Notes: generated by a model not told the origin, from the letters alone. Counted from the first letter of the whole stretch, positions 6,933-61,205 are shown. The stretch is 63,185 nucleotides of DNA, filler included, from Sphacelaria rigidula (GCA_964200075.2; 9 parts of 9 records of this genome joined end to end with filler, not necessarily neighbours in it), one strand, 5' to 3'. Numbers and translations are program-made.

Positions 6933-7032
6933 NNNNNNNNNNNNNNNNNNNNNNNNNNNNNNNNNNNNNNNNNNNNTTAATTAATTAANNNNNNNNNNNN
7001 NNNNNNNNNNNNNNNNNNNNNNNNNNNNNNNN
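6933..7032. other. Artificial contig linker (N44-TTAATTAATTAA-N44); also 13965-14064, 20997-21096, 28029-28128, 35061-35160, 42093-42192, 49124-49223, 56155-56254
   Basis: Identical 100-nt spacers with stops in all six frames. The contigs between them are 6932 bp (x6) then 6931 bp (x3). Confidence 0.97.
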
Positions 7033-20456: not shown

Positions 20457-21135
20457 CTGTTTCATGTCGGTAGGAACGTGAGATAAATAACAAGAGACAA
20501 CAGCAAAAAGAGGTGAGTAAGTTGGTATGAAAAGGAAAAACAGAGCGAAGTGTGTGCACAAATGAGAATGTGAAGGTCGATGATCGGAGATGGAAGGAAA
20601 CAAACGCTCGCCAGTCGCCGTGAGTGGGTTGGTTAGTGCAACAAATAATACAATGACGACTCACTCACAGAATCCCAAGAGGAAATCGATCATTTGCTGC
20701 GGGGATTCATCGGACGATTAAGGTCTACCAAATACAACTGACAAAGGAGGATAGCATGACAGCCGAACAACTACGGCTCCCGTAGAGTCGAGGGAAGACA
20801 CCGAGCCCCCAAACGGTGATATTGGGTGCGTTGGGTAGTTTGCAGCGAATTTTGTGCGCCACCCAAGCGCGTAGAGCTTTTCCTCGAGTCTCATCTTATA
20901 CAATCCGCTGGAAACCACCCCCTGCCGAGTATCAACCACACCCCCCCCCCCCCAACCCCACCCCACAATCAACAAGAAAGAAACAACACAAAAACANNNN
21001 NNNNNNNNNNNNNNNNNNNNNNNNNNNNNNNNNNNNNNNNTTAATTAATTAANNNNNNNNNNNNNNNNNNNNNNNNNNNNNNNNNNNNNNNNNNNNTTTT
21101 GTGCTGCTGTGGTCGGTTCGGGGGTTGGGGTCGTG

Positions 21136-27260: not shown

Positions 27261-28696
27261 TGGGGGTCATTTTTGTTTAAATCGTCACGATGTTGTTCCA
27301 TATATAAGCTTTTTGTCACCACCCGTTGAAATTTTTCGTTTTTTTTTCAACGGCTCTTTCATAAGAATTATTCGAGACGCGCAGAAACTATTTTCACCCG
27401 TTTTCACTCTACACCATGCCTTCTCCACTTCACGTCTGAGGTGTTCACTTTTTCCCCTGGTTCGTTTCTGCAAACAATGCGATGCATATCACGAGCTGTG
27501 CGATCGTAGGGGCGCACAAAATTCTTCTGGGCAGGCGTACTGAAGTTAGATACGGAATCTCGCGCACTTGCACTGGTGCAGTTACGACGAAGTTGCGTCT
27601 GAACGTGAGGCGATACTCTCGCAGCCAAGCATCACAGATTGTGAAGAACGATAGTCTTGTTTCTCAACGCGAAAATACGTGAGGCGATGCACTCCCACCG
27701 TGGTACAATTCTCACACTTCCTGACAATCAAGATCCTAAGTTGACAAGCATTTTCAGCAAATGCTGGCACCAATGATGAGTGCCCCATAGCACTGCATCG
27801 GTGTACGCAGCGTATCACCCCCTAAAATTCGTGTCTGTATCGTGTTGTTCTCGTTGTTTTTGGTCCTAGTTTCTCAGATCTACTCCGTTTGTTCGTATGC
27901 TCGTATGTTCTCGTTTCATCCACTTTTTTCCCCTTTTTTTTCCAGCGATCGTTTCCGTTTTGTACACCGCTGACTGATGCCGAGATAGCCCCCCCACAAA
28001 AAGTGCACCGGAGACCGTCCGACAAACCNNNNNNNNNNNNNNNNNNNNNNNNNNNNNNNNNNNNNNNNNNNNTTAATTAATTAANNNNNNNNNNNNNNNN
28101 NNNNNNNNNNNNNNNNNNNNNNNNNNNNTGGTCCATATGAAAGTCATTTGTCATGAATCTAGTTCAGGGAAAGCACGGCTTTTGAGCTGAACCTCATTTT
28201 TTCTTTCAACCCCATTTTCGAAAATCGGCTGTTATTTGCGAATGAATTCGGGCACAACCTGGCTATATCGTATCTTTAACTCGAACCGCACGGCTCACAC
28301 TACTTTGGAGCCATCTTGAACGGTGCATTTTTCCACAAATGCGACCTGTGGGCCAGCGCGCAACATTTAAAAACATTATTCTGCCATTCCATTCAGGCAG
28401 CGGGTGGCAGGGATGTTCCAACATGCTACACATGTAAACGTTTCGTCTCATTATCGGAACCGGCGCAGCGAGACATGTTATGAATAAAACCTCACTCTCA
28501 ATCGTACTTTCAACGCTCGATTTCACGGAAACATTGTTGGGTTTGCCGGCAGGATTTTGCACCAATGTGCGAGATAAGCGTTTTGTCCATTAATGGTGCA
28601 GACACACCCTGCCGCTGAAAGCCATGAAACGCCTGCTCTCAATCGTATCGTAGACTCTCAATCTCACGAAAACATTGTTAATTGTAAGATGAGAGC

Positions 28697-31234: not shown

Positions 31235-34200
31235 TCACAATTGAATATCGAACTCACTCGCCATGCGAGCAGCAACGGCATGAGTCACGCGCAATTTACG
31301 CAACTCCTTCGTAAGAAATTCCGGAGCGGCCTTAAAAATGTCCTTGAAAGGCTCCCACTTACGCTTCTCAATTTCGAAACCAACCCAGTCGACCAACACG
31401 ACCAACGAACGATCATCTAGTTCTGCCACTCGGACAATACCAGCCATCTGAAATTGCCCCTGATCGAAAGCATGCTGGAACACGTCCTTAACTTCAGCCG
31501 TAACATTAAGCTGCGAGTCTGCGTAAAAACGCAAACGAGCTACATGGGCAGTATGAACACGACCCGAAACAATGTTTTGAATCTCAAACACGTGCGGGTG
31601 GTGAGCACCAACCTCTTTCCATGGACCAGTCCACATCGCCATCAACTTGGGCGTAACACCCGGACGACGCACGCGTGCATACAAGACATAGTCACCTACC
31701 TCAAAATTCGGCAATTCCAGCCCCGACGTGGACCCCTCACGTCTACGCGCATGTTCAGGGGCAACACGTTCCTGCACTTGAACGTGGAAACGTTTTTGCA
31801 CGTCCAAGACTCCTTGCAATGCACTTTTAAGTTGAACATCGTCCAGAACATCAAACTTCCATTTCCCCGCCGATGAAGACGCCAGCACCGAGAAAGTCGT
31901 CTGAGGGACACGACCAAACATCACGTGGTACGGCGTACTGTCGTAACGACGACGATACGCTGTATTGAGCGCCCATTGCACCGCTGGCAACACGTCCACC
32001 CATTCGGAAGCCTCTATACGATGCTCGAGAAGAATAGAGCGAAGAGCACGAACTACTTCCTTGACCATGCGTTCGCACGTACCGTTAGACCACGGAGAAT
32101 ACGCTACCGCAAACCGGTGATCAACGCGCAAAGCCTCTCGCAAGCGGGCCAAGATCGCATTCTTGAAATGCGTGGAGGTATCACTCACCCACACACGCGG
32201 CACCCCTACAGTTTTGCACCAATTCCGCAGAGATGCAGCGGTAGATTAAGCAGTACACAATGCTACTGGTTCCAGAGTCACAAAGTTGCTCAAATCATCT
32301 ATGGTTACCAAAATGTATCGAGACCCAGCATCCTCCGACAAACCTTGAGAAGTTATCGGGCCACTCTCGCCCACGTACAAGAAGTCAAAATGAACGACTT
32401 CATTCGGCGTGGTCCCATGGACAGTTTCGCCGAGCGGGCGGTGAACAACACCGCCCGCCCTCGAGTCAGCACAGTGAAGACACTGGCGGACAAATTCGCG
32501 CACGTGAGTTTCTATCCTCCGCCAGACACAAATATCTTGCAAGCGCACGAGCGTCGCAGCCACATCACGATGCCCGGCGTCGCGCATGTGCGCGAGAATC
32601 ATCAGACGTACCTGCAACTGCTTGTCAGAACTCGGAATCCACAAAACGTTTCGGCCACGCACATGCACACGAAACAGACCTTCATTGTCCAAGACAGCAG
32701 TACCAACGTCCGACTCGAAATATTGCACACCCGCACCTTCGGCCCCAAGGTCTTTTAGTCGCGCTTGGCGGACAACAGATCTGGACGGCATCGACTCATC
32801 ACGTTCACACGGACCATACACAGCCAAAGCACGCACAGGCATTTCAATTCCAACTGTAGGCACCTGCATAACCACACTACCCCATTGGCACTCAGATGCA
32901 TCTGGAAACAAAAACACCTGACAATCAGGGCGAGGATGGAACAGCGTCACGGCATGAGCCACCAGATTCCTTCGCTGCCGTTCACGCCTATAGCCTGCCC
33001 TCCGTCCACGATGCAGCCTTCTTCGGAAACGCCATATCTGGACTGGACCACCCCACCTGCAAACTCTGTAACACCAACTCGAGCGCCAAAAGAGCCGCCA
33101 TGCACAACGCCAACCAACTCGACTTCACTGGATCGCACCGCCGCGACTTCATCTTCACCGCAGACGCCCCAGGTTTTGGCTGAACACGCATCGGCTCCAC
33201 GCGCGTAGGGGGATCACCCCGCAGCGCACGACGAAACGCGTTGACGCGGTCATGCAATATGCCGCGCAGGCGCTCCGCTTTTGAGACGCTGAGGCCTGTC
33301 GCCCCAGCATCCGTTACGTTCTCCTCCAGCGCGACCTTCCGAGCGGACTCCTCTTCCGCCGGAATCATTAACATCTTCGGGCCGCGCTCTGCTAAGCGTT
33401 CCATTGCCGCATCCCGCTCCTCGGTCACCTGCCCTCCAGCCTCCTGAAAAGCATCCACTGACAAACTCACGCGACGACTGCCCAAAAGGACGGGCGTCTC
33501 CACATGCAGACCAGGCGGAGTCATCCGCGTCTTGATGGAGTCCTTCAACCGCTCACACGGGTCGACTCCTAGATCCTGTAGCGTCGGCAACTCCAGACGA
33601 ATAACGCCATCCGACCCTGGCATAATCGCAAACGAGATCGGAGGCAACGGCGCCAGCCCCCGAGCAGGCTTAAAGGCTAGCTGAAACGGAACAGTACGCT
33701 CCGTGACTGAAACATGCTGACCCGACGCGGTGACTGCCTGCCGCGCCCCGAGCGAAAACGGGATACGCAGCGGCATACCCGGGAGTTGACGCTCCAGCCT
33801 CTCAACCATCTGCACCGGCAGACAAGTGAAATGGGCGCCAATTCCAATACAGACCGAATCACAATGGCTCCACGCTGCCGTTGATTCGGAAGACATAACT
33901 CCGCCGGAATGTATCTGTCGGCAAGCTCCACGGGAACTTCTTCCGCTGACATGCGTCGCTAATCCCACTTGACGCCACGGCTGCGCAAGCTGCGCAGACG
34001 AAGACTTCCCGGCAGGTTCAAACGGCACCGCCGGCGGGTACGCCCCCCAGCCAGCAAACCAAGAATTTGGCGACCCTCCGACCAGCGCGTCGACAGGCGT
34101 CGCACCTTGCGCTGCTGCCGGTGTCGCCGGCGCAGTGTTCGACTCTGTAGAAGTCGGGCCCACCTGCACCGCCCGCTGCGGAGCAACAGCACCTACGGCG

Positions 34201-35060
34201 GCGCCGGATCCGGAGCCAGGCTCACGCTGACGCCGCTGCCCCTGCTGCCGCTGCGGCTGCTGCTGAGGGCTTGCCTGCGACCCTCCATCGCCGGAGGATC
34301 CGCCGCCGCCACCACGATTACCTCGTCTTTTCCCCTTGTGCTGACGATGCTGATGGCGCGCGGCACTTGACTGCCCAGACTATCCACCGGAAGACGTTGG
34401 GCAATCGCGCGCGTAATGACCGACCTGGCCACAGCGGTGGCAAGTAATACTCGCGGCGTGACCGGCCGATTTCGAGCCATCTTCGCGCAAAGATTTCGGC
34501 GAAGGGGAGGACGGCTGGCCGAACACCTCTATTCTTCGCCATTCCTTGGCCTCGGCTACGACGGTGCTCATCACCAGGTACGGGTCGGCCTTCCAGTCTG
34601 TTTGGTGCTGCAGCGTGACAAGCACGGCTTGCTTGATTTTTTCCGGTGCCAACCCCTCCACCAAAGCCTTCGTGACCACTGCAGCCGGACCGGGAATGAA
34701 CTCACCATGGCAGGAACGATGTACTAGTTCACGTTCGGATTTTCCGTGAAGCACTTCTTCAAATCGGACAGGATGGGCCCCACCCGCTCCAACATCGTTT
34801 CCCCCCGATAATCTATTGCGACAGCTTTCGCCACGGCCGCGGACTTTTGGGTGAGATCTACCTCGGCGCCCGCCGCATGCCCAACATGCTTTTTGATCGC
34901 CGCAACCAATTGCGGCGAGGTGATAGTACTCTCATTATGTTCAAAACGAGAGAACACTCTCTGTACATGAGTTGGCACTTGTTGAGCCATTGTCACCACC
35001 TGATGCCGCACGGCACCCCCTGCATTAGCGTGCTCCACACGCTTCTTGTATTCCAAATAC
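31235..35060 (-). mobile_element. Ty3/gypsy chromodomain LTR retrotransposon, degenerate, RT core deleted, truncated by contig end
   Basis: Gag zinc knuckle CHRCGQVGHYARDC (~34395-34440), degenerate protease, RT start WSSP...PKK directly followed by RNase H (LFHP...FPDASECQWG), integrase HHCC (HMRDAGH...CLHC), core VVHFDFLY/VSDTSTHF/SNGTCERMV and a C-terminal chromodomain (VLVDWVGF...WEP). Several frameshifts and stops. Confidence 0.92.
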
Positions 35061-35160
35061 NNNNNNNNNNNNNNNNNNNNNNNNNNNNNNNNNNNNNNNN
35101 NNNNTTAATTAATTAANNNNNNNNNNNNNNNNNNNNNNNNNNNNNNNNNNNNNNNNNNNN

Positions 35161-37270
35161 AGGGGAGGGCCTCCGACGGCTTCATGTTTGCTGGTGTGGT
35201 CCGGGAGGCGGCAGCCGCACCCCCGTGGGCATGTGAGGCCCTGCCAAGCTCGTAAGCAGACGCCCGCCGGCGGGGCCCATGACGCCAGCTTCGTGTTGAA
35301 ATCGGTGTTCGGTGGCGTGAGGTGTTGCCACTGGGGCGGGTACGGCGGGGGTCGGGGAGCGACGCGTTTGACCGCGTTGCTCGTGCTCCCGTCGGGGAGT
35401 GCCTTTCGCTTGACGGTTGTCTCGGGGGCGGGCTGCGCGGATGAGCCTGCTACCGCGAGCCCGGGGTTTTGGCGACCGATGAGGCTGCTGGGGTGGCCGT
35501 CGGCGGTTAGCGTTTTCACACGGGTGAAATATGGCACCGGCGCCGCGGGGCCCTGCCCGTTGGCGGGTGGGGCGGCGGAAGACTCCATGCGTAAGTTCAA
35601 TCCCGCGTCCCTGCATTCTGTGAGCCACCCGTTGATGTCGTGGTTATAGTCAGTGATTATGCGGGTTTTGACGGCCGCCTCGTCTCTGTGTAGAGCGGCG
35701 TAATTTTTTCTCGTATACGCGTCCAGCGCCGACGCCATCCTCGTCAGCTCTCCTGTGATGAAGGCTCGCCTATCCCGCCCGCCGTCGTTGTCGGTGGTGC
35801 CGAAGTTGATGATGATGGTCAGAGCCTTGGTAAATGTTGTGACATGGACCTCAGCGCGAAAGTAGTTCTTTTTTATGCCAGGCGGCACCAGGGAGTGGAA
35901 GTTGGTGACGTAAACGTCGTTCAGCGTCTGGAGATTACTCAGCATGCCCCGGTTGGTGTCGGCCACATCGCCGAGTTTTAGTTTCAAGTTTGCGTCAGAC
36001 ATGGAAATGGAAATGGAGACCCCGCCCCTGAGGATGTGGAAGAGTGCCTTGTTTTCGTCTGAGAGTCAGCTGTTAATCTCCCGCTTCTTCTGCATTTCTT
36101 CGGCCTTCTTCGTACTGGCGGGGGCGGCGTTGTCCGCTCCCATTGCATGCATGAGTTGTTGGATCTGACCCCCTTCCCCGCCACTAAGAAGTTGAAGGAG
36201 TTGGTGGACCGGGGATTGCGGCTGTGCTTGGTGGTGTTGCTGTGGTTGCTGTTGATGGAGTTGTTGTACGTGGTGCTGGTCCGGCCGCGGTTGCCGTTGT
36301 TGCTGCGGCGGCTGCGGTTGTCCGTGCTGCTCGTGCTGCTGAGGTTGATGCTGTTGCTGCTGCTGTTGCGGTTGATGATGGTGATGTGGCTGCCTGTGAC
36401 TGTTGGAGTTGGTGATGCGGTGGTGGCCCTCCGATGGGTGGCGGCAGTGGGACGCTGGGTGCAAGCAGGGAGGCCCCGTTTACTCTTCCCCCCGCCATAT
36501 GCTGTTGCCGTGCGGCGCTCGCCGGCTGCCGGCCGACCCCGCCTTGGACGGCCCCGCCTTGCTGTTGTGGTTGTCCGTACTGGAGAAGATGTACCTGCTG
36601 TTGAAGGTTCGAGATTGCCTGGCTCTTTTGCTGCTGTCGGTGAAGGTTTTGCTGGTGTTGCTGATCCATGTTGATGTTCGTTTTCGCCTGTGCCTGCAGG
36701 ATTTGAGCTAGAATTTCTGATGGCGCGCTTGGGCCCGGTGGGGGTCCGAGTGGCGGTGGGGGGGGGTGCAGGTGCGTCAGTGTTGAACTGGCCTGCACTA
36801 CCTTGCGGGCGGGCATGCTGGTTGACGGAGATCGGGTTGCTGTGCGTGCCTCCGGCTTGTGGTGCCGAGGCTCGGCGTGGTTCCCGTCCTGCGGCCCTTC
36901 CCTCTTTTCTCCTGCCGTTGCTCGAGCTCCTGATGTGCTGTGGGGGTGTTGGCCTTGGCTTTGCGAAGCCGCTCCTCCCGCTGCTGCTGCTGCTCCCGAT
37001 GTTGATGTGTTGTCCATGATAAAAACCGATCAAGTGCCAGGGACTACTGTACTACTGAGACTGCTGGCGTGTCGCTGACTGGTCAACTGGTCTCGAGTGA
37101 TACTGTCTGCTTCTTTGGTACTCTTGCACAAGACCAGTATCGCCCGCTTGAACCAACTCTGCGGCGTTGCGCCTTGGACACGCGATCCCTCACATCTTAT
37201 TTCAACTTCGGCATACGCCAGAGTACATCCCTTATAATTCGTCATCCGCCAACACAAACCTCGTATTCAT
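35161..37270 (-). mobile_element. Retroelement 5' region with gag-like ORF (Q-rich N-terminus, helical domain, CCCH finger), copy 1; putative DIRS/Ngaro type, degenerate
   Basis: Homologous to 50100-52708, including a ~250-nt non-coding leader. C-x8-C-x5-C-x4-H finger CLRAWQGLTCPRGCGCRLPDH. In-frame TGA at 36066 where copy 2 has TGG. Confidence 0.6.
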
Positions 37271-41100: not shown

Positions 41101-44100
41101 ATCACCGCATCGCTTTGTACCTGGCATATTACGCGGACGCTTCCCATGGTACTAGGCAAACATTCCAAACATAGGGCTTAAGAGATTAAAAAACCCCAAT
41201 CGTGGTACGAACAAAACACACAGATGCGATACAAAAACAGAATAAAACGAATGAAAGTGGTATCAAAACAACTGTAACGCAAAGAAGAAGACAAAAATAG
41301 GGGGTCGTCGGCGCGCGCGATCGCTTCGCGGTAGCAAGTCGTGCACACCGCACGAGCATACATATCGCAAATCTCGATAGGTTTTGCGTGCCTCCCCGTC
41401 CTTCGCGATGATATCCAGCCGCCGTGTGCCGCGAAAACGCACCTAAATAATTTCACGCTTCGCACCGCTCGGTGACTAATACAACCTGAAATGAGTGTTA
41501 CCGTGCAGCACCGCCAGAACAATCAAATGACGCCCCTGCACGGCACCGCGCCACATGAACACTCTCGCCTCTACCCGCCCCGGTCCCGGCATAAATGCCG
41601 TCGCACCGCACGGCCCGCAACTTGGGACGCTTCCACACTTCCACACAAATTGTCTTTCTCGTCGCAATTGCCACCACCTTATCACCCAACAATTATCTTG
41701 GCATCACACATGACGGGCGGGCCGTGGCGCATTCACCACGGCCGCCAAGTACACCCGCCGCCGGGTCCGGGCGTTGGGATTTGCGGGGCAGAATCACGGG
41801 GTGACCGGCGTTACTACAGCATAACTTCATCTGCCCCGTCCCTGCGGCCGCACTTCCTCCCGTCAAATGTCATGCCTTGCCATCCTGCGGCGCCTATCGT
41901 CCCATGGACATCGGGTAAATCTTTAGACCTGTCCGACGTGAATACCTGCGCCACTCCCTGTAACAAGCGCGCACGACGGTGGTGTGGCGTGTTTAATTCC
42001 GGTGATATTCCAGCATGAAGTTGCTCTATTTGGATCATTGATTGATTGTCGCACTTTGACTGCCCCCCCAGGGATCTAGCCGTGGTCTCATGNNNNNNNN
42101 NNNNNNNNNNNNNNNNNNNNNNNNNNNNNNNNNNNNTTAATTAATTAANNNNNNNNNNNNNNNNNNNNNNNNNNNNNNNNNNNNNNNNNNNNAAAGATGG
42201 ACACAATCCCGGGGAGCGGTGGATTCTCATTTCAAAATACGTTCTCATTTTTCTGGCAACCCTGTTAGGTGAGGAAGATGTGACCGATGTGACTAGAACA
42301 ACAGCAAACACAAGTGTCGCACAGCGACGCATGGACAAGATCAAACGTTTCCAGATACGAGATACATTATTCAATGTGTCCACAACTCATGAGCACCGCA
42401 GCACCAGACGGGAGAAAACGGGGGGAAAGGAGAGTGCCCGGCATGGCACATCACAACCAAAACACAATTCGAATATTTTCACCTGTACGCAGGTGCTAAC
42501 ACCTGCACAGCCACGATATATCTCACTAACTGTACCCTGTCGAATATCTCGGTATCTTATGATATCTTAGTGCTGAATAAGGTGAAGCAACTCACTTCAT
42601 CACGCACCCTTGGTTCCTCTCAGCATCATCGAACTGACGAACTGCAGGCAACACTACACAAGCAAGAGCTGAAGGAGAACACCCGGACCCTCCGGTGACC
42701 CTCCGGGAAGCATCTATTTCAGCCGTTCACAACACCACAATCTCATCTACTCAGCCATCAAAGCTCACACCCGGAATCTGTCCTCAATATGCCACATGCT
42801 GCATTACTATTTTGCATGGATGGCGTGTTGCGACATTCCGTACTCTCAAAGAAAGGTCACTGAACTATGAATGACAACCTTATCTCGCAGTTGTAATAAT
42901 CACTTATCAATTATTGTCGACTGCGATTCAGAGCAAATGCAAGCTTCGGCATCATCTCTGACTTGCTAAACATCACGTGACGTCATCACGTTACTCACTC
43001 GAACATAAATGTTTGAGAGGCCACTGACTCAAAGCCCTCTAGCTAAAATAAAGAGCACATGAACAAAGGCACAACGGAAATTCCACTTAGCCTACTTGAT
43101 GTTTATTTTGACACTCCTATGGTGCTCTAAACTTGTAACGTCCGAAACCATTCGAATCGACCTTTAGAGGACTATCAGTCTGGACAGAATGACGTTGAGA
43201 ACACAGTGCTGTCTAACTATGCAAAGTTGAAGAAGTGACGTGATGGCAATGCGGCTGGTGTGTCTTTTTTTGGTGCGGCTTTCCAGACGCAAAGCTCCCT
43301 ATTTCTAATCTTGCGCCGCAGGATATGTTTGATGAACCCGAAGGGCTACCAGGCGTGTAGCTAGTGTCTGGCGCCCCTAAATTTTGTAAACGACTGCAAG
43401 AGCCGTAGGTGGCGGTTAGGCGATCCGTGACGGCGTTGTGTTTACGTAAGGGTGCACGGCAGATAGGCTCGAAACCGGGACTGCGGTTCGCAAAGTGGAA
43501 CATCCCACCCCTCCTAGGGCTGTTTATCGTTCAGCATGCACGGTAGATTCTGTCTGAGAACGCGAAGTTGATTCCCTCCAGCAGGAGGCGATAGCTGCCA
43601 AAAAGGCATGGGAGAGCTCAAACATGATCTTGCCTACTGTACACAAAGTTGCATCAAGTCGTGTAGGTTTGTATTGTGGGCTGAGATCACCTCCTGGGAA
43701 TCGATTTATCAACGGGTGACCCATATCGGTGTAAAATTGATCATAATATAATCATTGTGATTAAGGGTTTTCAGCATTTCTCCTGTTGTCTGAAGACTCA
43801 ACATCGCTTTTCACATGCCGCAAGAGACGAACGCTGCCCAAAATACATGGAAGAGCTCAAGTAAATCATCCGGCATATACGGAGATGCATCGAGTGGCGC
43901 GAGATTCGTACCGTGAAACCAGATGGGATTTTGAAAGCCAGTCGATCATCAAGTCATCACCCATGCAGGTGGCACGACACGCCACTTTTGTTTCTCACTC
44001 TAGCTAACTGAGATTCAATACCCCATCGGAATTTAGGAACTTTTAACTCTCGCCCCTCCCTCCTCGGAACTAGTATGTCGTCTTCAGGGATCAACCCTTG

Positions 44101-44653
44101 CTCCCCCCCACTACGTGCCCGACATGTTGCTATCGCGAGGTAAGTCAGTACTCCCAAACCGGGTCGACTCGGGTTCAAATCCCTTGCCGGTTCGCGTCTT
44201 GACGTGTTCAACTGCGGAAACCATACTCTGAAAGACAAACCCGTTAACGTCGGGATTTGAACATGAACTCTCCCGCCTACACAGACTATGGGTGTACTAG
44301 TCACACCATCGGGGAGTGGCGGCTTCCTAGGGGGATACTACGGGAGACAGCTTGCCCTAACTTGAAGAGCCCACCCCTCTTCACAGCTACTACTCTTGAA
44401 GTATGGCTTCTATTGCTGCTAAATCACTATGCAACTCACGCCATTCGTGACCCGTACAACCTTAATTGTGGATTGAAGATCGGAGCGGTAATGTCTCAAG
44501 AACACGCTTCGTGTGCACTTTAAAAAAACATAAACCGTACTCCTCGTCACGCCTTGCCCCCACTTTGCTGCCCACCCCGCTGCTTTTCACTAAATAAGGA
44601 ACAGTGAACGAGCTATCTTGACGGCTTCAAGCATCCTGGAACGTCACACTAAC

Positions 44654-47600
44654 ATGTTTGGCGGGGAGGCCAAGACTACGGACGAATTCGTGTTGGACAG
44701 AGGTGAGAACAAGACATCCGACAGGGCTCCATCACATCTCGAAGTGCCCACTTCTGTCATCACCGGATCCTCGCGGGGGGCTTTCGCCGAGGGCGGGACA
44801 GCTGTATCGCGGCGTACGTTAAACGAAAAGGATGACGCTTACCACCAAGCAACACGCATATCGTTCGGGGCGCACGTAGCTACGCATGACGTGAACGAGC
44901 ACACGAAAGCTGGGAAAAAACCCTGGAACCCTCGCGTCATTTCTGGAGTGCTGCTGTGGGTTCTTTTCGTCACCCTCGCAGTAGGATGTGTGATGGTGTA
45001 TATCAAGGGGACGTTTGCCTCGGTGTACGGCATCTTTTATCTCACAGGTACGATAATATCACGGCTAGAAACGTCGCATTGAAGTCTAGGTTGGTGGAAG
45101 TGTATGCGTAGGCAACAACAGAAATAAGCCGCTCAGCCAATTGATGTGAGAAAGAGATATAGCAAAAGGGTACGGTTTCATGGGCGCGACAAATACTTGG
45201 GGTCCTTCTCGGCAAGTTTGGTGCTATTTCGTAGCCCTGTGCGGCCAGCCCTGAGCGAAATCGTTTTTTTCGCTCGACCCTGAGCAAAATTGCCAACACC
45301 GCAATATACGATACCCATTTTTCTAGCTGCCAGGGAGGGTACCAAACCGTGAGCGCTTTCAATATTCTCTGCTTGAGTCTTCTCTCGGATCCAAGCATCG
45401 CTGCGGTCAAGTTACCCCGGAACCCGGATAGGATTGACTTCGGTGTACCTCCCTCCTTCCGGTGCATCATCTACGCCGCCACCTGAACCGCCTGGACGAT
45501 GGGAAAGAGCCACATAAGAGACTCCCACAAAGGCTAGCTTGGATTTCAAAATTCCAACATGTGTTTTTTATGCAAAACACCTCAGAACGTGTCACGATGC
45601 GGACAATTCTGAGCCACTGAACCAGCCAGTGCTCACTGATTCGAAGGCTCACCGGTCGAATGTCTGCTTCACGAACAACATTTGGGTGACTGGAGTCGAT
45701 TTTTAGTCTGATGCTGCAGGATACATGATTTGATCAGTAACCCATGCTACTGGACGATCGTTGCCTGCATCGTACCTCTTTATGTGTTGCGCGTCTATCC
45801 GCAGGCTACGGCTGTCTCTCAATCGGGTATTACTTTCTGACCATGTGCTTCGCCCTTCTCAATCGTCGGCACGTCGAACGTCTTAGGAAGGCTGACTTCG
45901 ATGACGTCGAAAATGTATGGAACCCCCCCGTCGTCGTAAATGTAGTGGGGTACCGTGAAGACCCCGACTACTTCAGGAGGTGTCTCTCCTCTGCGAATCG
46001 TCTCACGTACTCGAACCTCCGCGTGATCGTTGTTTCCATCGATGGGAACGATAAGGATGATGAAGAAATGGCCGAGATTGCAATGAGCATCTTCCCGGAC
46101 GCTATTAGGATCAACATGCTATCCGATCCGTTTGCGGACAGGTACACCAGCTTTCTGCGTCTGGTTCCTGAGGTGGATTTTACCTGCTCTCAGGCCAGGA
46201 CGGTATTCGTCGTATCTCAGCCCCACATGGGAAAAAGGGAAGCCCTTTACTCGTCGTTCAAGGTAGCCGAGAAAGTTGGTGCTGAGTATATCTTCAACAC
46301 AGATTCGGATACCATCTTGGATCCTATGGCTGTGACGGAGATGATTCGTATGACGAAGGGTAGACCTGACGTAGGCGCGGTAGCCGGAGAGTTGACCATC
46401 TTCAACGACACAAACTGGCTTGGAAAGCTCACCGCGTCCCGGTACTTGATCGCCTTCAACGTTGAGAGGGCATCTCTGGGATACCATGGAGTTGTCAATT
46501 GCATCTCAGGCCCCATGGGGATGTACCAGGCAGCAGCCGTCGTACAAGTCATGGATGGGTGGGTGCATCAACACTTCCTGGGGGTGAAGTGCTCCTTTGG
46601 AGATGACAGAAACCTCACCAACAGGATCCTCGCACTAGGGAAGAAGGTGGTCTACACTCACAGAGCAACAGGTAGAGTACGTAACGTAAATACCGGTGAA
46701 AGTCGTTTTGATTTTGCCCGGCACTGTTGCCCTGCACTTCAAGGCCGTCGCTACTTCTCATGGCTCACGGGTAATATTTCGCTGTATTGCCCGTGGTGTT
46801 GCGCTCTCTCCATCTGTTTGGCAGGCGCAACCGAGACTCCGCTGTCCTACCCGCGCTTTGTAGCACAGCAAACGAGGTGCGACTCGTTCTTGTGCGAATC
46901 GTTCTTGTTACTGCTGTGCTCTCACCCGGAACTCACCGAGTTTCTCTGTGTATGGACGCGCTACGCACAGTCACGAATACGTTCAGTCACCGTTCGTCAC
47001 TTGGTTGCTTCTCATTAGTCGAGGGCTTCTCTCTCAGATTTGCGAAGTCAGATGGAAACACACGAATTCAACATTATGGCAGTTGTATGGGAGTATCGTC
47101 GAGAGCGTTCATGAGTTGCTGCTCTCACTGCGTACCGGATTACCCGAGTATCTCAGCACAGCCACTATTGCCACCAGGGTTTTGTTGCCGCGACGGTGGC
47201 TCACCGATGTGTGCCCACCCCTTCTCTCCCGTCGTGGTATCGTATCTTGACGCCATCGGTCGATGAACGTCACACAGGTGGTCCAAAAGCTTCTGGCGCG
47301 AGATGTACCTCCAGCTCAAGTGGTCAAGGTTCAGCCGGCGCGCCATGTACAGCCTGTTGGACAATTTGTACGGGCTTTTGTTCCCGATCCTGGTAGTCAT
47401 GACTATTCTCACGGTTGTGTTCTCTCGCACGTGGACATCTCTGTTCGCGATCGGGATCATGACTCTTCTGACTCCAGTGTGTCGCGCTTTGTTTGTTTAT
47501 GTGATGATCAAGCGCGACCGTACGCTGTTCTACAACGTACTGTACCCGTTCATGTATTTTTCAACCCTTCTCGCTGTAAAAGTAGTGGCTTTATTCACCA

Positions 47601-47734
47601 TAAGGAACAATACTTGGGGTACTTCGTCGAGGAAGAGAGTCGTGAAAACCTGGGCTCCTGTAATACCCGTGTTTTTTTGGTGGGGCATTCTCGGTTTTGG
47701 CTTCACCAACCTCGCCTTCGGAGGAGGTTTCTAA
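44654..47734 (+). CDS. HAS: Class I hyaluronan synthase-like processive GT2 glycosyltransferase, 589 aa; exons 44654-45047, 45805-46671, 46825-46876, 47278-47734
   Basis: The exons sum to 1770 nt in frame (intron phases 1,1,2; all GT-CAG). Motifs: GYREDPDYF..CL, SIDGN, QPHMGKREALY, TDSDT, RYLIAFNVER, CISGPMGMY, QHFLGVKCSFGDDRNLTNRIL, TETP..Y.RF..QQTR|WSKSFWRE (formed only by splicing), WGTSSRK. Two N-terminal and about four C-terminal hydrophobic segments. Confidence 0.9.
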
Positions 47735-48384
47735 AGTTCAACCATTAGATAATTTGCAGCTACATCCACAGTGGAATTAACACTCAAAAAGTATTCAGAG
47801 GCTGTCAGCGGTTTCCTTGGTGCTCGGAAGAGTCGTCATGTCACATCCGTGTTTTTGTCGTGTGCGTCCCTCGTTGTTCCTGTGCGATATTGGATGGTGT
47901 TGTGAGTGCGAGAATGTGCTGTGTTGTTCCACCCGAAACCTCACTTGTACATACCCTCGAGAAGTCTGCGTTCGGTTTGTGTTTATTGTGTCAGAGCCGC
48001 GCCGACACCTTTATCAGAGATAGGCTTAAGTTCCGCGCGCGATTTGTTTTCTTGAAATTAAGCTCGAAATTCAGCTCGTCATATTTGTTTCATGAGCTTA
48101 ATTTTATTTTCAAGCCTCGCTTGAAGCATTTTTAGCGCAAATTAGGCGCGCTTTATGTGCTTTATCCCCGTCCTTGTTTCGGTGTTCTGGCAGTATCCTC
48201 TCACGAGGCGCGCCTCCTAACATGAGAACAACACAACGAGTTGAGCATTCGATTTTTTTATGCTTGTTTTGTTTCCAAAATTAGGCTTTTCATCAGTCAT
48301 TGGGTTTGAAGGACACAACCTGCACATCTACACTCTCACCCACGTACGAAAACAATTACAGGTGGCCACTGGGGGCAGGCTCCA

Positions 48385-48590
48385 GGACCTGGCAGGCACC
48401 TTGCGCAACCTGACTAGGCCAGTTAGGCTATCCACCTTTGGTAAGGTGTCAGGTTGCGCAAGGTACCTTATGCAAGGTCCTGTAAGGTACGTTGCACAAG
48501 GTTCTGCAAGATACCTTGCACAAAGTCCTGTGAGGTGGTCTTGCAAGGTATTCCACAAGGTCCCGTGTGCAACCTTGCACAGGGTCCCGC
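48385..48590. repeat. Degenerate ~22-bp minisatellite built on CCTTGC(AC)AAGG palindromic units
   Basis: Recurrent GGTACCTT/ CCTTGCACAAGGTCC motifs. Confidence 0.65.
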
Positions 48591-49007
48591 ATTTGGAAAG
48601 ATGCCAACGTCTCCCACAAGCTAGAGCCAACAATATGAAGATTTCTTCGCAGTTGATTATGTCGTGTATGCTTTTCCTCTTTGAATCACATGATCCTGCC
48701 GCCTCACATGAACAAATATACACCCCAAAACAAACGAAAGTGGCAGATATCGGCCCAAGAACAATCCTATGAGTAATACTGCCAACAAGTCGCAACCCGT
48801 ACGAATTCCATCCCGTAGACCCATTTAAACCATTGAGAACCGTGGTGTATGACGCGTCTATCATATATCTCTCTATATATGTAGCAATTATCGAGGCCAT
48901 CAACCATAAGTCTCACATCCTCACCCTATCTTGATCTTCGGCAGAAAAAAACAGACAAGAAGCGTTATAACCCCTCCCGTCCCTCTTGATATCCAAGAGG
49001 AAAACAC

Positions 49008-49045
<38 letters not shown>

Positions 49046-49375
49046 ACACGACGAAAGAGAGGAAAAGAGCAGAGACATAGAGCAGGAAAGGAAGACTTCA
49101 CATAGGTTCCCCTGGCTCACTCCNNNNNNNNNNNNNNNNNNNNNNNNNNNNNNNNNNNNNNNNNNNNTTAATTAATTAANNNNNNNNNNNNNNNNNNNNN
49201 NNNNNNNNNNNNNNNNNNNNNNNCTGACACACTTATAGAGCCTCTTTTTTCGTGCAACCGAATACCCCTCCCCTATCGTAGGATGACTCTTCTCATGTAT
49301 GTATAGCAGTAAACACGTCCTCCGGTGTAGTGCCAAGTGTGTATTATGTATATCTACATGTATGGATGCATGTGT

Positions 49376-50099: not shown

Positions 50100-52708
50100 C
50101 GACTTCGTTGTCGGGCGTGGGCGATGCGGAATGGAACTACGCGATCTACCGCTATGACGTACTTGTTGCTAAATGCATCGGTATTTCTGCTCTCACCGTG
50201 GAAGAAGCTTGCCGCCACCGATCCCGGTTGGGGGGCCTAGGCGATACCCACCGACCTCGCTGAGTCCGTAACCGATGCTCCTCCTCCCCCCAGACTGGTA
50301 GGCCCCGCCGACTGGCGGAGCCCGCATCCTCAGGTGCCCCGCCCGGCTCCGCCATTGCCGCCGTAGTTGTGGGGAAAACGCGCCACTGTACCCGCTGCAG
50401 CCGCCGGTGACGCTGGTGCTGGTGGGTTTGCCGCCGCCGTCGCCGGGACTGATGGTGACTTCTTGACCGCCGCTGGCGGCTGGACGGGCAGGCCTCCGAC
50501 GGCTTCGTGCTTGCTGGTGTGGTCCCGGAGGCGGCAGCCGCGCCCCCGTGGGCATGTGGGGCCCTGCCATGCTCGCAACCAGACGCCCGCCGGCGGAACC
50601 CATGACGCCAGCCCCGTGTTGGAATCCGTGTTTGGCGGGGTGAGGTGCGACCATTAGAGTGGGTACGACGAGGAGTGGGGGGCGACGCCTTTCACCGCGT
50701 TGTTCACGCCTCCGTCGGGGAGCGCCTTCCGCTTTGTGGCAGTCTTGGGGGCGGGCTGCGCGGGTGAGCCTGCTACGGACGAGGCCGGGGTTCTGCCGAC
50801 CGCTGAGGCTGCTGGGGTGGCCGTCGGCGGTGAGCGTCTTGACGCGGGTGAACGCTGGTACCGGCGCTGCAGATCCCTGCCAATTAGCGGGTGGGGCGGT
50901 GGGTAAATCCGTGCGCAGATTAAGCATGGCGTCCCTGCAGTCTGTCAGCCACCCGTTGACGTCGTGGTTGAACTCGGTAATTATCCGAGCTCTGACGGCA
51001 GCGTCGTCTTTGTACTGTTCGGCGTAAGTCTTCCCGGTGTAGGCGTCGAGCGCCAACGCCATTCTTGAGAGCCCCCCCGTGATGAAAGCCCTCCTATCCC
51101 GCCCGCCGTCATTGTCGTTGGTGCTGAAGTTGATGAGGATGGCCAGCGCCTTGATGAAAGTGGTAACGTGAACCTCGGCGCGAAAGCATGTTTTTTTTCG
51201 TGACGGGGGACACCGGGGAGTGGAAAGTGGCGACGTCCACATCGGTTAGCGTCTGGAGGTTGGTGAGCATGTCGCGGTTGCTGTCTGCCACATTGCGGAG
51301 TTGAAGCTCGAGGTTTGCGTCCGACATGGGGATGGAAATGGAGACCGCAACCCTCAGAAGGAGAGATAAGTGCTTTGTTGTCGTCCGAGAGCCAGTTGTT
51401 GATTTCCCGCTTCTCCTGCATTTCGTCTGCCTTCTTTCTACTGACGGGGGCGGTGTTGGCCGCTCCCATTGCTTGAACAACCTGTTGAATCTGCCCCCCT
51501 CCCCTATCGTTGAGGAGCTGGAGGAGTTATCGCACCCGGGGCTGGGGCTGTGCTTGCTGGTATTGCTGGAGTTGAAGTTGCGGTTGTTGCTGGTGTTCCC
51601 CACCGATGGCTTGGGCCCTCCGCGTGTTGATATTGATGTGAGTTGTGTTGCTGTACGTGGTGCTGGCCCGGCTGCGGCTCTTGATGGTGCTGGTACGGCT
51701 ACGGCTGCGGCTGTCGATGTTGCTGATGCGGCTGCGGCTGCGGTTGCCGATATTGCTAATGCCGTTAGGGCTGTTGGTGTTGTTGATGTGGCTGCGGTTG
51801 TTGTTGTTGCTGATGCGGCTGCGGCTCTCGCTGCTGCTGATGTGATTGCGGCTCTCTGATGGATGGCGGAGGTGAACCGCTGGAGGTGGGCGGGAACAGC
51901 CCGCCTGCTCCTCCTCCGGCCAGCTGTTGTTGCTGTGCGGTGCTCGCCGGTTGACGATTGGCCCCGCCATGTTGTTGTGGATGCCCAAACTGGAGAAGGT
52001 GTACCTGCTGTTGAACGGTCGTGATCGCTTGGCTCTGTTACTGGTGTTGCCGTGTCATGTGGTGGATGTTGTTGTTGGTCTGTGCTTGTGCCTGTAGGAT
52101 TTGGGCCAGCACGTCTGACGGCTGGGTTGTGCCAGGCGGGAGTCCCATCGGGAGTGGTGGGGGCTCTTGTGCGACAGCGTTGCGCTGCGCTGCGCTGCGC
52201 TGCGCTGCCCCGCGGGCCAGCGTGTTGGTTGGCGGAGGTCGTGCCGCTGTGCGCGCCTCCGTGTTGTGGTGCCGCGACTAGACCTGGCTTTCCTCTTGCC
52301 GTTGCTGCCATCCCTCCTTTCGCTCCCGCTGTCCTCAATGCGTCCATTGCCCGAGCTCCTGGTGTGCTTCTATGCTGATGTTGGTCTTGGTCTTGTAGGG
52401 CTGCTGCTGTTGCTGCTGCTGCTGCTGTTCTCGATGCTGGTGTGTCGGTCATTGTAAAAATCGATCAAGTGCCAGAGACTACTGTACTACCGAGACTGCT
52501 GGCGTGTCGCTGTCTGGTCGTTTGGTCTCGAGGGATGCTGTCTGCTTCTTTGATGCTCTTGCACTATACCAGTCTCTCTCGCTTGGACAACACTCTGTGA
52601 CAGTGGCGCCTTGACTACCCGAACCCCTTATATTTGATTTCGAGCTCGACATACGCCAGAATACATCCCTTATAACTCGTCATCCGCCGACACAAACCTC
52701 GTATTTAT
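50100..52708 (-). mobile_element. Retroelement 5' region with gag-like CCCH ORF, copy 2, frameshifted
   Basis: MSDANLELQL.NVADSNRDMLTNLQTLTDV...FRAEVHVTTFIKAL...AWQGPTCPRGRGCRLRDH. Shares its leader with 37020-37270, and homology stops at the same point (CACAAACCTCGTATT). Confidence 0.6.
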
Positions 52709-55700: not shown

Positions 55701-57318
55701 GGCCTTTTTTCAAAAGGAGGTGGTTGTTTTTTGCGGCAAAACAGTATTCCTGTACTGCCGTGCTGCTGTGCCTCGTTCAACTCGCCACCGGCTCATCGCA
55801 CGGTCTTGTGTTTGCTGCTGACAGAGGCCAAGGCAATGTTCGATTGTTCTCAACGTCTTTGCTCTCATGTTCTCGTGACATTAACGGCATAATCGGTGTG
55901 TTCGTGCTCCCAATTGAAGGAGAACGCGACAAAGAGAAGCACGGGGAAAAAATGCCCCGCCAAACGCAATCCTGTTTGTAGTTTTCCATGATCTTCGGCA
56001 GGCTTTTGTGGTTCGGGATCGACACCCCGCGAAAAAGGGCCAGTTTGAGCGACTTTCGGTGACCAGAACACGTGGCACAGGTATCCGATTAAGCCTGAAA
56101 CAACAAATTGTGCGGATTGAGGTTTAACTTCGAGATGAGGTTCAAGCCTAAAACNNNNNNNNNNNNNNNNNNNNNNNNNNNNNNNNNNNNNNNNNNNNTT
56201 AATTAATTAANNNNNNNNNNNNNNNNNNNNNNNNNNNNNNNNNNNNNNNNNNNNGAAAGCACGGCTTTGGAGTTGAACCTCATTTTTTTTCAACCCCATT
56301 TTCGAAAATCGGCTGTTACCAGCCCTTCAACTCACCCCATTGGTTGCCATGAAAAATGGTCTAATGCTGCGAGATGGCATCACGCTCGTCAGCAGCTCCA
56401 TCATGGGAGAGAACCTCCGAGCCGAATGTCATATACGACGTTAACAGACAGGAGTATCCAAGAGTGATTCTACGATACGAGGGTGGTGTTTGACTGCACG
56501 AAAAATAGGGGCTCACAGGTGTAAGAGACGACTCGAACAATCGCGGCGCGTTATGTTTGAGTGGAAACGGTTTCAAGGGATCGAACAGGTGTCTTATTGG
56601 CAACAAGCGGAACAAACGGTGCTGATTTTAGCAACGATCCGAGAAGAAAATTGGTGGAAGAATAAGAATAAACGGCTCGAAATTTCTCCCACCACCACCA
56701 TCCTAGCATCATTCCCAACTCGGACTGGGCTGGAAAGCTTGTTCTCGATCCAACAATGTCCAATGATGGTGATTGTTTTTTTTCCACAGTTGAAAAAAAA
56801 GTGGTGACGGTGATTGTCTGTAGCTGGGCGTCTACGGAAGCGGAAAAGTGTTCCAGACTTTTGGAGAAAAGCCCAACCCACATTGAGGCGAGAAGGGCCA
56901 GTGTCGCGCATTTGAGGGGCAGGAGCTCGTGCGAAAGAACCGAGATCACCTTTGAACTGAGACAAGAATACTCTGTATGAAGATTCACCTTGAAGACGAA
57001 AATCGCAGAGTGGGCAAAAATGTCTCATGTCGGGGTTTGAACTATAGTAACCTACGTAACTGGGGTCTCCTGTATCAGTTGCTGCAGACCATCGGGACGC
57101 AGTGGTGTCACACAAAACGTTCCACGCGCGGCCCGATTTTAGGTGTTAGTAGTCCAACCTTTACCAGGACCTTTTGCGCGCAGACAATGAAAATCGTCGT
57201 TTGAGTTACCGCTGTTTTTTTTGTTTTTTTCATGGAGTACATTACGCCGCTGCCTTCCCCGCCGACTCCACAGCTCCAGTCGCACGCAAACTAGCCAAAT
57301 GCAGAGCAGCATGGGTAG

Positions 57319-59665: not shown

Positions 59666-59698
<33 letters not shown>

Positions 59699-61205
59699 CG
59701 GTTCGCTCTTCTCGCGTGAAGTCATACGGTGGAGAGGCCTGTCGGACCAGGCTCGTTCGCACGTGCGCTTGTTTGTCGTTGTCCAGTGTGTCTTGCTCTG
59801 TTTGCTTGGTCTTGCTCTTTTTCGTTCATGTGTCTTCTTCTCCGAGTTTCCCACATATTTGTGCCCACTGTTTATACCTCCTCGGGTACATACGTCTGTC
59901 GTTTGACAACGGCTGGTTGGATTCGTCGCACATCACTTAATGTGCGACAATCAAATCGATGAAGAAGACACCAAAACAGCTTCATTTGAACCCTATACAT
60001 GAGCGAGGGGCTTACGGACCATGGAATACGACTGTACACGGTATGTCGTCATCGAGGGTGGTGCTGGCGAACAAAGCGACGTTGTCCAGCTATAGGGTCG
60101 GGAATCCCGGGGCCAAAGGCCAGCGAGCGATGTTGTTCCCAAATGAGGTCAGCCTCCTTGAGCACGAGTGCTGATAGTTTGGGGTGTCGACACTCAGGGT
60201 ACTCCGGAATACCTAGTCACTCGGGGAAGTGGGTGCTGCAGGTGTTCAGAGTGCTGAGTATATTACTGAGTAGGCCGAGCACGGTATCGGGTATTCGGGG
60301 TGGTGGGTACTCCATGTACTCTCGTATACTGAGTGCTACGAACCCTGAGTTCCATGGGTTTGTATTGAACCTGCATGCAACGAGGTCAATGTTCAACACC
60401 CAAATACTGCTCGCGGCATTATTATTATTTTTTTTCATTCGGCGGAGGAGGGAGGGAGGGAGGGGGAGGGGGAGGCCCCACTTGAAAAACACCTCCCCTT
60501 CCTCTGGACGACTCTGTGGTCTCAAGGGATATATAAAACCCATCTATAATCTCTCTCCCGGTGCATGCCTTATATTTTGGTACATTGTTGTATCGCGGAA
60601 GATATCAGCATTCACTTTCGCACCGCGTCGATTCGACCTTCGTCAAATGAACTCGGTCTAACAAACTCTTGGTGCTACTCACATGCTCACGATTTTACCG
60701 GCGGGAACTGGTGGGAATCGAACCTCCCAATCTTTCACGGTTAGGACAAATCATCACGACTCATAATCACCAAATTCACGATTTCTTCGGCCTGATTTCC
60801 CAAAAGGGGGGGGAAAAGTTGACCGCTGGTCCAAGGGTTATCCACGCAACTTTTGAGCCATTCCATGTGTCTGGGCTGCGTGTACCTGGGTTGCAACGCT
60901 GAGAGATAAAGCCTAGGGGTTGGTGCGTCACGAGTCGACTCATCATACTAAAACCACGTGATTTTCAGACGAATCATTATTTGTCCGACCCTTGCAATTT
61001 TTCTAAATCCAATGGTGTCAATAGTACCGTCAGACCCCGGCGCGGGGCGATTTTGATGGGTGAGTATAGGAATAAGGGCGCAAGTCCCTTAGACAACTCT
61101 TGTGGGAGCCGCTCATTTTTCGATTTCGAACATTTTGAACGGGTGGTGATAAAAACCACTCTCATGGAAACGAAAATCACTCTTAGGCCACTCCTTGTAA
61201 TGGAA

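Follow-up and report, generated by a model that had tools for sequence, protein, structure and literature searches.

The question raised by the stretch of Sphacelaria rigidula DNA analysed here (the window: 63,185 nucleotides (nt) from GCA_964200075.2, filler included) is what is encoded on its plus strand at 44654–47734, where an intact, intron-containing gene resembling those for hyaluronan synthase (HAS) had been predicted from the sequence alone. The analysis confirmed that the observation of a spliced HAS-like gene is real, and that the gene had already been annotated, though without a name. The adopted reading, in which about even confidence is placed, is that this is a nuclear, intron-containing, transcribed Sphacelaria gene belonging to a small copy family and encoding a processive glycosyltransferase family 2 (GT2) enzyme of the class-I HAS type.

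Structure of the gene

Joining the exons 44654–45047, 45805–46671, 46825–46876 and 47278–47734 reproduced the predicted intact four-exon frame of 1770 nt (589 codons plus TAA), in which no internal stop codon was present. All three introns (757, 153 and 401 nt) begin with GT and end with AG. Exon 3 ends in ...CAG CAA ACG AG and exon 4 begins with G TGG; intron 3 therefore splits an arginine codon (AG/G), and the QQTRW motif is present in the spliced product only, as the original prediction had stated. Every motif listed in that prediction was found in the 589-residue translation, namely GYREDP, DGND, GKRE, DSDT, RYLIAFNVER, CISGPMGMY, FLGVKCSFGDDRNLTN, QQTRWSKSFWRE, WGTSSRK, AVAGE and LGKKVV.

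The NCBI protein CAM9871912.1 (P0264; "unnamed protein product", Sphacelaria rigidula, 476 amino acids (aa)) lies on a 6931-nt contig, which is the length of piece 7 of the window (see below). It is letter-identical to the model from residue 114 to the end, and since it is an exact substring of the 589-aa model, all three introns are shared by the annotators' model. A paralogue filed under S. rigidula (P0001) and a group of relatives at about half identity (the "~50%" group, described below) also aligned collinearly with the model across all three exon junctions. The NCBI start, M114 (44993), falls within the first transmembrane helix (TMH1), whereas P0001 keeps the whole helix together with a longer N-terminus; for this reason, and because RNA-like contigs reach 44598, the ATG at 44654 is the better start. 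The features of the gene are as follows.

44598..44653, plus strand: 5' untranslated part of the first exon; RNA-like contigs start at 44598 (run X6) and 44603 (run X7)
44654..45047, plus strand: coding exon 1, with the ATG, an N-terminal extension of ~90 aa without Pfam match, and TMH1 (VISGVLLWVLFVTLAVGCVMVYI)
45048..45804, plus strand: intron 1, 757 nt, GT..AG; removed in one contig each of X6 and X7
45805..46671, plus strand: coding exon 2, with TMH2 and the entire GT-A catalytic domain (motifs GYREDP, QPHMGKRE, DSDT, RY..AFNVER, CISGP and GDDR); partly covered by X6/X7 contigs
46672..46824, plus strand: intron 2, 153 nt, GT..AG; from homology and the NCBI model
46825..46876, plus strand: coding exon 3, 52 nt (ATETPLSYPRFVAQQTR); required for the frame and for QxxRW
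46877..47277, plus strand: intron 3, 401 nt, GT..AG; from homology and the NCBI model, with the acceptor 47277/47278 used in X7 record 24
47278..47734, plus strand: coding exon 4, with the W of QxxRW, interface and transmembrane helices, the gating loop WGTSSRK, one last helix and the TAA (47732–47734)
47735..47810, plus strand: 3' untranslated region, at least to the contig end; X6 record 21 ends at 47810

Class of the encoded protein

Pfam matches were confined to generic GT2 models and Chitin_synth_2 (38.7 bits against a cut-off of 27), with no match to Chitin_synth_1; the Chitin_synth_2 model also matches HASs, according to PMC5122149. The NodC model of NCBIfam (TIGR04242) scored 156 bits (E 1.3e-45) and its curated equivalog cut-off of 550 was not reached. 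When P0264 was compared with PDB sequences by phmmer, the five distinct sequences matched at E ≤ 1e-5 were all HAS, including the chlorovirus enzyme CvHAS (1.2e-70) and Xenopus HAS1 (1.1e-68), and no chitin synthase chain was found among the matches at this threshold. Exon 2 alone matched PDB HAS at E 1.7e-49.

Structural comparison gave the same result. The AlphaFold2 model, built from a 60-row alignment, had a predicted local distance difference test score (pLDDT) of 91.9 and a predicted template modelling score (pTM) of 0.91. In Foldseek, ranks 1–13 were without exception HAS structures (13/13), with template modelling (TM) scores of 0.78–0.84 and E values of 1e-29 to 1e-34, followed, some 20 orders of magnitude away in E value, by chitin and cellulose synthases (TM 0.44–0.56, E ~1e-13; chitin synthase structures alone, TM 0.48–0.56). 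Sequence and model together support a membrane-embedded processive GT2 of the class-I HAS type, not a chitin, cellulose or NodC synthase; the preference for class-I HAS over chitin and cellulose synthases that had been expressed earlier was borne out by the PDB matches, by the Foldseek ranking and by the NodC score below its cut-off.

Twenty-seven positions of CvHAS were mapped onto the window protein, with roles taken from PMC12987647 and PMC11750622 and numbering calibrated on the chlorovirus open reading frame (ORF) of locus L096, and 24 of them were identical. The three differences were Y299F and R457S, both of which are the vertebrate state, and G458S. The uracil pocket of CvHAS (Y91, H174 and K177) is kept as Y181, H272 and K275; in CvHAS, Y91 and H174 hold uracil, and K177 and R341 hold the carboxylate of glucuronic acid (GlcA) (PMC12987647). 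This basic pair, which is not known to be specific to HASs, is kept as K275 and R438. Also kept are the metal sites E93, D201 and D203 (E183, D298 and D300), the GDDR motif with the base D302 (G397–R400) and QxxRW (Q435...R438-W439). The collar that receives the N-acetylglucosamine (GlcNAc) acceptor is identical (R256, C267, G270, S345 and W342), and R348 and the gating-loop tryptophan are retained as well (collar and gating-loop roles from PMC11750622). The gating loop reads WGTSSRK versus WGT(S/R)G(R/K), with a serine in place of one glycine.

Membrane architecture

Proven HASs possess two N-terminal transmembrane helices, four C-terminal ones and three interface helices (PMC11750622). In the window protein, 38 residues follow the WGT motif, and the single helix there corresponds to residues 451–471 of P0264 in the AlphaFold2 model. 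The eight sequences comprising the S. rigidula copies and the "mid", "~50%" and "env" groups have 36–49 residues after the motif, the six chlorovirus, giant-virus metagenome-assembled genome (MAG) and vertebrate sequences in which the motif was found have 83–107, and two Mucoromycota sequences have 63 and 75; in two more giant-virus MAG sequences (L018 and L004) the motif was not located. As modelled, the clade is a 2+3-helix variant of the 2+4 arrangement of proven HASs, without TMH6. The N-terminal extension of ~90 aa, which has no Pfam match, also sets the protein apart from proven HASs.

Predicted mechanism and product

The enzyme would be located at the plasma membrane, where its cytosolic GT-A domain would take up uridine diphosphate (UDP)-sugars, with metals held by the DSDT and GYRE residues, uracil held by the Tyr, His and Lys residues, and the second Asp of GDDR acting as the base. 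Sugars would be added at the non-reducing end, the terminal GlcNAc of the chain stacking on Trp439 of QQTRW, and the polymer would be exported through the synthase's own transmembrane channel. The most likely product, proposed tentatively and with slightly less than even confidence, would be hyaluronan or a closely related GlcNAc-containing acidic polymer. A product of the hyaluronan type is favoured because the whole dual-substrate site is kept and because both groups of proven HASs fall within the same ingroup of the phylogenetic tree (see below).

An enzyme that makes chitin or chito-oligosaccharides from GlcNAc only, either in the manner of NodC or through the chitin-oligomer activity of HASs, is rather unlikely. 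NodC is the only strong match among the prokaryote families of NCBIfam, Chitin_synth_2 is above its cut-off, an architecture with one helix fewer is closer to that of smaller synthases, and HASs, which use GlcNAc for priming, are able to make chitin oligomers (PMC10939387; PMC12987647). However, the NodC score is far under the family cut-off, chitin synthase structures fit the model worse than HAS structures do, and no chitin synthase chain was matched by sequence at E 1e-5; the GlcA-carboxylate pair is also kept, though it is not known as HAS-specific.

Transcription and splicing

The gene stretch was present in seven sequencing runs from three studies, four of which (X1, X5, X6 and X7) were aligned. 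Run X1 carried the whole stretch in one contig at a depth of 73.7 and run X5 covered it patchily, intron sequence included, and both are genomic-like. In X6 and X7, cover was confined to exon sequence, and these two runs were taken as RNA from this exon-only cover and from an automatic guess, no run being recorded as RNA. One contig of X6 and one of X7 join 45047 to 45805 (a 757-nt skip, GT..AG, with shorter sides of 55 and 255 letters), and no contig with this join was found in the genomic-like runs X1 and X5; intron 1 is therefore spliced out of transcripts. Introns 2 and 3 are supported by homology and by the NCBI model, with no X6 or X7 contig covering them. Of the three junctions that were to be checked in RNA, therefore, the first was seen spliced in both runs, while the other two had no covering RNA contig and one contig skips exon 3. 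This contig, X7 record 24, has 12 unaligned letters and ACAG directly before exon 4, and these 16 letters are the 3' end of exon 2; within the window, the 12 letters have a single occurrence, at 46656.

It is quite improbable that the gene is decaying or silenced at the RNA level, with the exon-3-skipping form as the main form and no active synthase made from this copy. The join of exon 2 to exon 4 in X7 record 24 shifts the frame, so that translation would end after 459 aa and QxxRW would be lacking; exon 3 has no cover in X6 or in X7, and other gene copies exist that could carry the function. On the other hand, the 589-codon frame is open, all catalytic residues are intact both here and in the paralogue with 69% identity, exon 3 is contained in the NCBI model, and rarer variants get dropped from contigs. 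Depth in X6 and X7 is only 3–6, with further gaps inside exon 2, so the lack of cover over a 52-nt exon means little.

At the 5' end, X6 has 27 unaligned letters before the first transcribed base, beside an AG at 44597–44598, and these letters occur nowhere in the window, including the 2.4 kb upstream of the gene. A further 5' exon probably lies beyond the contig end.

Relatives and distribution

A HMMER scan of 1.84 billion cluster representatives returned 1714 matches at E ≤ 1e-3 and 128 at E ≤ 1e-30, indicating that HAS-like proteins are common in public data. Apart from the window's own ORF (P0091), the nearest match was a 93% copy (P0092) that reads into similar sequence at the positions of introns 1 and 2. 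The paralogue P0001 has 621 aa and is 82% identical over exon 2 and 69% overall. Further relatives were the "mid" group (P0280, P0106 and P0121, with P0280 at 52% over the full length) and the "~50%" group (P0002, P0003, P0093–P0101 and P0120), the latter being complete single ORFs of ~490–510 aa from metagenome and run assemblies on contigs of up to 121 kb; identity in the two groups is 49–52%. P0093, P0267 and P0002 are carried by metagenome contigs of 121, 67 and 26 kb, respectively. One of the single-ORF forms of the "~50%" group, P0100, is a record of S. rigidula on a contig of 15.7 kb and is collinear with the model. Besides the S. rigidula records, the only name among the relatives looked up was an automatic "hyaluronan synthase" label from JGI. 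S. rigidula was the sole brown alga named in two listings of matches (1 of 90 and 1 of 29); other brown algae, Ectocarpus included, were not named in those 90 and 29 matches, the brown-algal proteome content of the database being unchecked.

Full-length identity was 28.6–28.8% to chlorovirus HASs (n=2), 33.7% to fish HAS3, 32.6% to a Bifiguratus protein and 33.2% to a giant-virus MAG protein (locus L013). Searches of viral contigs with exon 2 alone as the query gave three pattern matches, none of which was confirmed. With an alignment as the query, 31 of 53 stretches in IMG/VR viral contigs were confirmed, at 28–40% to exon 2, and with a second alignment 17 of 52 were confirmed, at 30–36% to P0097, which carries a JGI source label; no member of the "~50%" group was found by either query. 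In metagenome contigs, 49 of 236 stretches were confirmed, with full-length identities of at most 36%, P0097's own contig not being among the contigs retrieved. Prokaryote genomes gave 39 confirmed stretches out of 53, at 38 loci, with a best full-length identity of 35% and no member of the "~50%" group, and a tblastn search of phage records gave two records at 26% identity. For P0093, the nearest cluster in Protein Atlas is 79% viral (Nucleocytoviricota); this is no more than a lead, given without an alignment.

The best "prokaryotic" match to the "~50%" group, at 35% near full length, was L097, a 292-kb contig filed as a Gammaproteobacteria MAG; this contig may be a mis-binned giant virus.

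It is very unlikely that the enzyme polymerises another acidic sugar, for example into glucuronan or into brown-algal mannuronan, the alginate precursor. According to a preprint on the brown-algal matrix, the GT2 genes that remain are not related to any known activity, and mannuronan synthases may be among them (10.1101/2024.04.23.590721). The carboxylate-binding Lys and Arg, which are kept, would also suit such an enzyme. However, all brown algae are known to make alginate, yet S. rigidula was the only one named among the matches, and this restricted distribution argues against a role as a general alginate polymerase. The substrate of alginate synthesis is guanosine diphosphate (GDP)-mannuronate, and the kept uracil contacts Tyr, His and Lys argue for UDP-sugars and against GDP-mannuronate. 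The GlcNAc acceptor collar is also intact.

Phylogenetic position

Two trees were computed, one of 146 rows with FastTree (only sequences of at least 380 aa were taken from P0123–P0199, and P0200–P0263 were left out) and one quick tree of 71 hand-picked rows with IQ-TREE (LG+G4, with the Shimodaira–Hasegawa-like approximate likelihood ratio test (SH-aLRT) as the only support), and the two have concordant topologies. The three S. rigidula-type rows make up one clade (support 100), nested in a clade of 14 rows that also includes the "mid" and "~50%" groups (SH-aLRT 100), which is itself nested in a 24-row clade of unnamed proteins (95). The sister of the 24-row clade is rich in giant-virus MAG genes (SH-aLRT 91), and at one of these loci a family-B DNA polymerase is encoded. 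Chlorovirus HASs fall in a separate well-supported clade with other giant-virus MAGs, and vertebrate HASs stand apart. The deep branches are a polytomy, the window protein lying within the same large ingroup as the proven HASs but in a separate, uncharacterised clade. It falls outside the chlorovirus and vertebrate clades and is sister to neither proven group.

Three alternative groupings were rejected by the approximately unbiased (AU) test, in which the groups had been named after the tree had been seen: the three S. rigidula-type rows with chloroviruses (p = 1e-51), the 14-row clade as sister to chloroviruses (p = 6e-5) and the 14-row clade as sister to the vertebrate clade (p = 0.014).

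The suggestion that several motifs look especially chlorovirus-like was not upheld. Identity to the chlorovirus enzymes is below that to fish HAS3, the Bifiguratus protein and the L013 protein, the sister position was rejected and QPH is widely shared; WGTSSRK, like Phe at CvHAS position 299, represents the vertebrate state.

In both trees, the protist transcript P0072 (MMETSP) and P0174 group with amphioxus and vertebrate HAS in a six-row clade (SH-aLRT 100).

Source DNA and host assignment

The window consists of nine pieces, each of 6931–6932 nt, joined by N44-TTAATTAATTAA-N44 spacers, and adjoining pieces are not genomic neighbours; the usable context of the HAS-type gene is therefore piece 7 (42193–49123) only. 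Upstream of the gene (42193–44590), only short stop-to-stop frames of at most 141 aa were found, and downstream within the piece lie a 24-nt tandem repeat, a 36-nt poly-C run and a high-copy element. In a shared-repeat search for a link to the host, this poly-C run was the sole sequence common to piece 7 and the other eight pieces. The guanine-plus-cytosine (GC) content of piece 7 is 0.50, and its tetranucleotide composition correlates at 0.61–0.71 with four of the eight other pieces. The correlations range from 0.41 to 0.71 and are not discriminating.

An algal or stramenopile host had been predicted, and this agrees with the filing of the DNA at NCBI as that of the brown alga Sphacelaria rigidula and with a gene that contains introns and is transcribed. 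It is highly improbable that the contig derives from another eukaryote living with the alga, such as a culture associate or epiphyte: the contig is short (6931 nt) and lacks a recognisable host gene, all copies filed under S. rigidula are on short contigs, the nearest relatives are environmental sequences and the poly-C run is all that is shared with the other pieces, but three such genes are filed under S. rigidula at NCBI, runs of three studies carry the stretch (two with one coded species label in common, the third labelled "algae metagenome"), the GC content and the correlations with four of eight pieces are unremarkable, and long GT..AG introns are consistent with brown-algal genes.

Origin of the gene

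Most probably, the gene was gained horizontally by the Sphacelaria lineage, and the intron gain and duplication would have followed the transfer. Horizontal gain fits the naming of only one brown alga among the matches, the presence of a single-ORF copy beside intron-bearing copies filed under the same species, and the viral identity of the named neighbours. A giant-virus donor is plausible, although it is held at somewhat short of even confidence. Viral genes are described as gaining introns once endogenised in brown algae (PMC11890097), and virus-derived host genes are reported in these algae (10.1101/2024.02.19.579948).

Seven giant-virus loci had 69 flanking ORFs of at least 150 aa, and 47 of these were scanned. 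None of the 47 belonged to the UDP-glucose dehydrogenase or glutamine:fructose-6-phosphate amidotransferase (GFAT) families, and they therefore give no linkage evidence for the product. One NAD-dependent epimerase/dehydratase was found among them, and two family-B DNA polymerase ORFs were found in the flanks of locus L004.

Weight of the evidence and significance

The reading of the locus as a transcribed Sphacelaria gene for a class-I HAS-type enzyme is carried by the gene model, by the splicing of intron 1, by the HAS-type fold and by the conserved UDP, metal, acceptor, base and gating-loop residues, all of which were established above. Several points weigh against this reading or against parts of it. 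With regard to the enzyme, the last helix (TMH6) of proven HASs is missing, leaving one helix instead of two after the gating loop; in the tree, neither group of proven HASs is sister to the clade; the mapped residues are all kept also by uncharacterised fungal and environmental relatives and are no proof of hyaluronan; the protein still scores 156 bits against the NodC model; short chitin chains can be made by HAS enzymes themselves, which prime with GlcNAc (PMC10939387); and hyaluronan is a predicted product. With regard to expression, the identity of X6 and X7 as RNA comes from an automatic guess, exon 3 is uncovered in both runs so that its inclusion was not seen in RNA, and the one contig that spans its position yields a truncated frame. 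With regard to origin, the three S. rigidula copies are all on contigs of only 6.9, 7.7 and 15.7 kb, the HAS-type gene has no host gene beside it so that an associated eukaryote is possible, and no member of the "~50%" group was found in the IMG/VR contigs, metagenome contigs or prokaryote genomes searched.

The system appears to be undescribed in the literature, as had been proposed. Literature searches combining HAS with brown-algal, phaeovirus or stramenopile terms returned no report of a brown-algal HAS, and the text of preprints on brown-algal genomes and matrix does not contain any word starting with "hyaluron", though their supplementary lists of carbohydrate-active enzymes and horizontal gene transfers may hold such genes as unassigned GT2. 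The available part of a 2023 review of HAS covers vertebrate, streptococcal, Pasteurella, chlorovirus, Cryptococcus and Bacillus cases only.

Brown-algal walls are described as consisting of alginate, fucose-containing sulphated polysaccharides and cellulose, and a HAS-type synthase hints at an extra polymer. A lineage-restricted, expressed synthase of this type would suggest that Sphacelaria, in which apical growth is classically studied, makes an additional polymer in its wall or at its surface. The clade also provides natural enzymes with all known catalytic residues and without TMH6, which bears on the role of the last helix and the lateral portal, and this is a candidate case of a multicellular alga gaining a gene, possibly from a virus, that then acquired introns and was duplicated. 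All of these implications hinge on the identity of the product, which is a prediction. A more far-reaching proposal, regarded as doubtful, is that the Sphacelaria wall contains hyaluronan or a new GlcA–GlcNAc polymer made by a five-helix synthase, the gene having come from an undescribed marine giant-virus lineage whose single-ORF copy, P0100, is still found among the records of this species, and having then been intronised and duplicated. If true, this would be the first hyaluronan system encoded by an algal genome and a natural minimal HAS without the last transmembrane helix.

Other features of the window

The N44-TTAATTAATTAA-N44 spacers lie at the following positions.

6933–7032
13965–14064
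20997–21096
28029–28128
35061–35160
42093–42192
49124–49223
56155–56254

In piece 7, the high-copy element lies just 3' of the gene, at 48064–48200, where the summed contig depth of run X1 rises from 73.7 to 2192; several alternative short inserts were seen in X1 contigs within it, at 48064–48130. The tandem repeat, at 48451–48530, has 3.3 copies of its 24-nt unit with 75% matches. The poly-C run at the end of the piece (49010–49045, 36 nt) is similar to one in piece 9 (59666–59703). GC-rich stretches (up to 0.63) with long overlapping frames on both strands were observed at 16560–18125, 31235–37050 and 50150–52465. Twelve long ORFs of the other pieces, some of them from these GC-rich stretches, had no Pfam match.

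Comparison with known systems

Brown-algal genes derived from giant viruses, such as those of phaeovirus insertions and histidine kinases, resemble the present case, with its patchy distribution and its single-ORF P0100 beside intron-bearing copies filed under the same species, and offer a known route by which genes are acquired. For the Ectocarpus virus EsV-1, the one glycosyltransferase reported in the available parts of PMC5122149 and PMC9614988 is classed as a chitin synthase, not as a HAS. NodC (TIGR04242) is a related GT2 with the same core motifs, hence the score of 156 bits, but that score is below the cut-off of 550, the profile has 395 positions versus 589 aa here, and the family is bacterial in NCBIfam scope.

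The closest likeness is to the "~50%" and "mid" groups, which share the clade (SH-aLRT 100, 14 rows), the RFVAQQTRWSKS and WGTSSRK motifs and the short C-terminus; they differ in being single ORFs of ~490–515 aa that lack most of the N-terminal extension.

Among characterised enzymes, the vertebrate HAS1–3 include the best fold match (Xenopus HAS1, PDB 8SMM/8SMN/8SMP; TM 0.84, with E 1.1e-68 by sequence), and they share with the window protein the Phe at CvHAS position 299, a gating loop of the WGTS.RK type, and the collar arginines and Cys. They differ in an identity of only 32–34% (HAS3), in having Trp where the window protein has His (CvHAS 174) and in possessing TMH6, and a sister position to them was rejected (p = 0.014).

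CvHAS (PDB 7SP6–7SPA, 8SNC–8SNE and 9YQ2–9YQ5; class I-NR) has in common with the window protein a GT-A domain and a transmembrane channel of its own, and the likeness extends to the sequence match (E 1.2e-70), the fold (TM 0.79–0.83) and 24 of 27 mapped positions, including His174 of QPH. In contrast, full-length identity is 29%, the two belong to different clades with the sister position rejected, CvHAS has a WGTRG loop and Tyr299 where WGTSSRK and Phe are found here, and 104–107 residues forming two helices follow its WGT motif, compared with 38 residues and one helix. The N-terminal extension of ~90 aa and the three spliceosomal introns are found on the Sphacelaria side. Set beside these systems, the window protein adds a new member to the family of HAS-type synthases; its host is unexpected and its membrane domain shortened.

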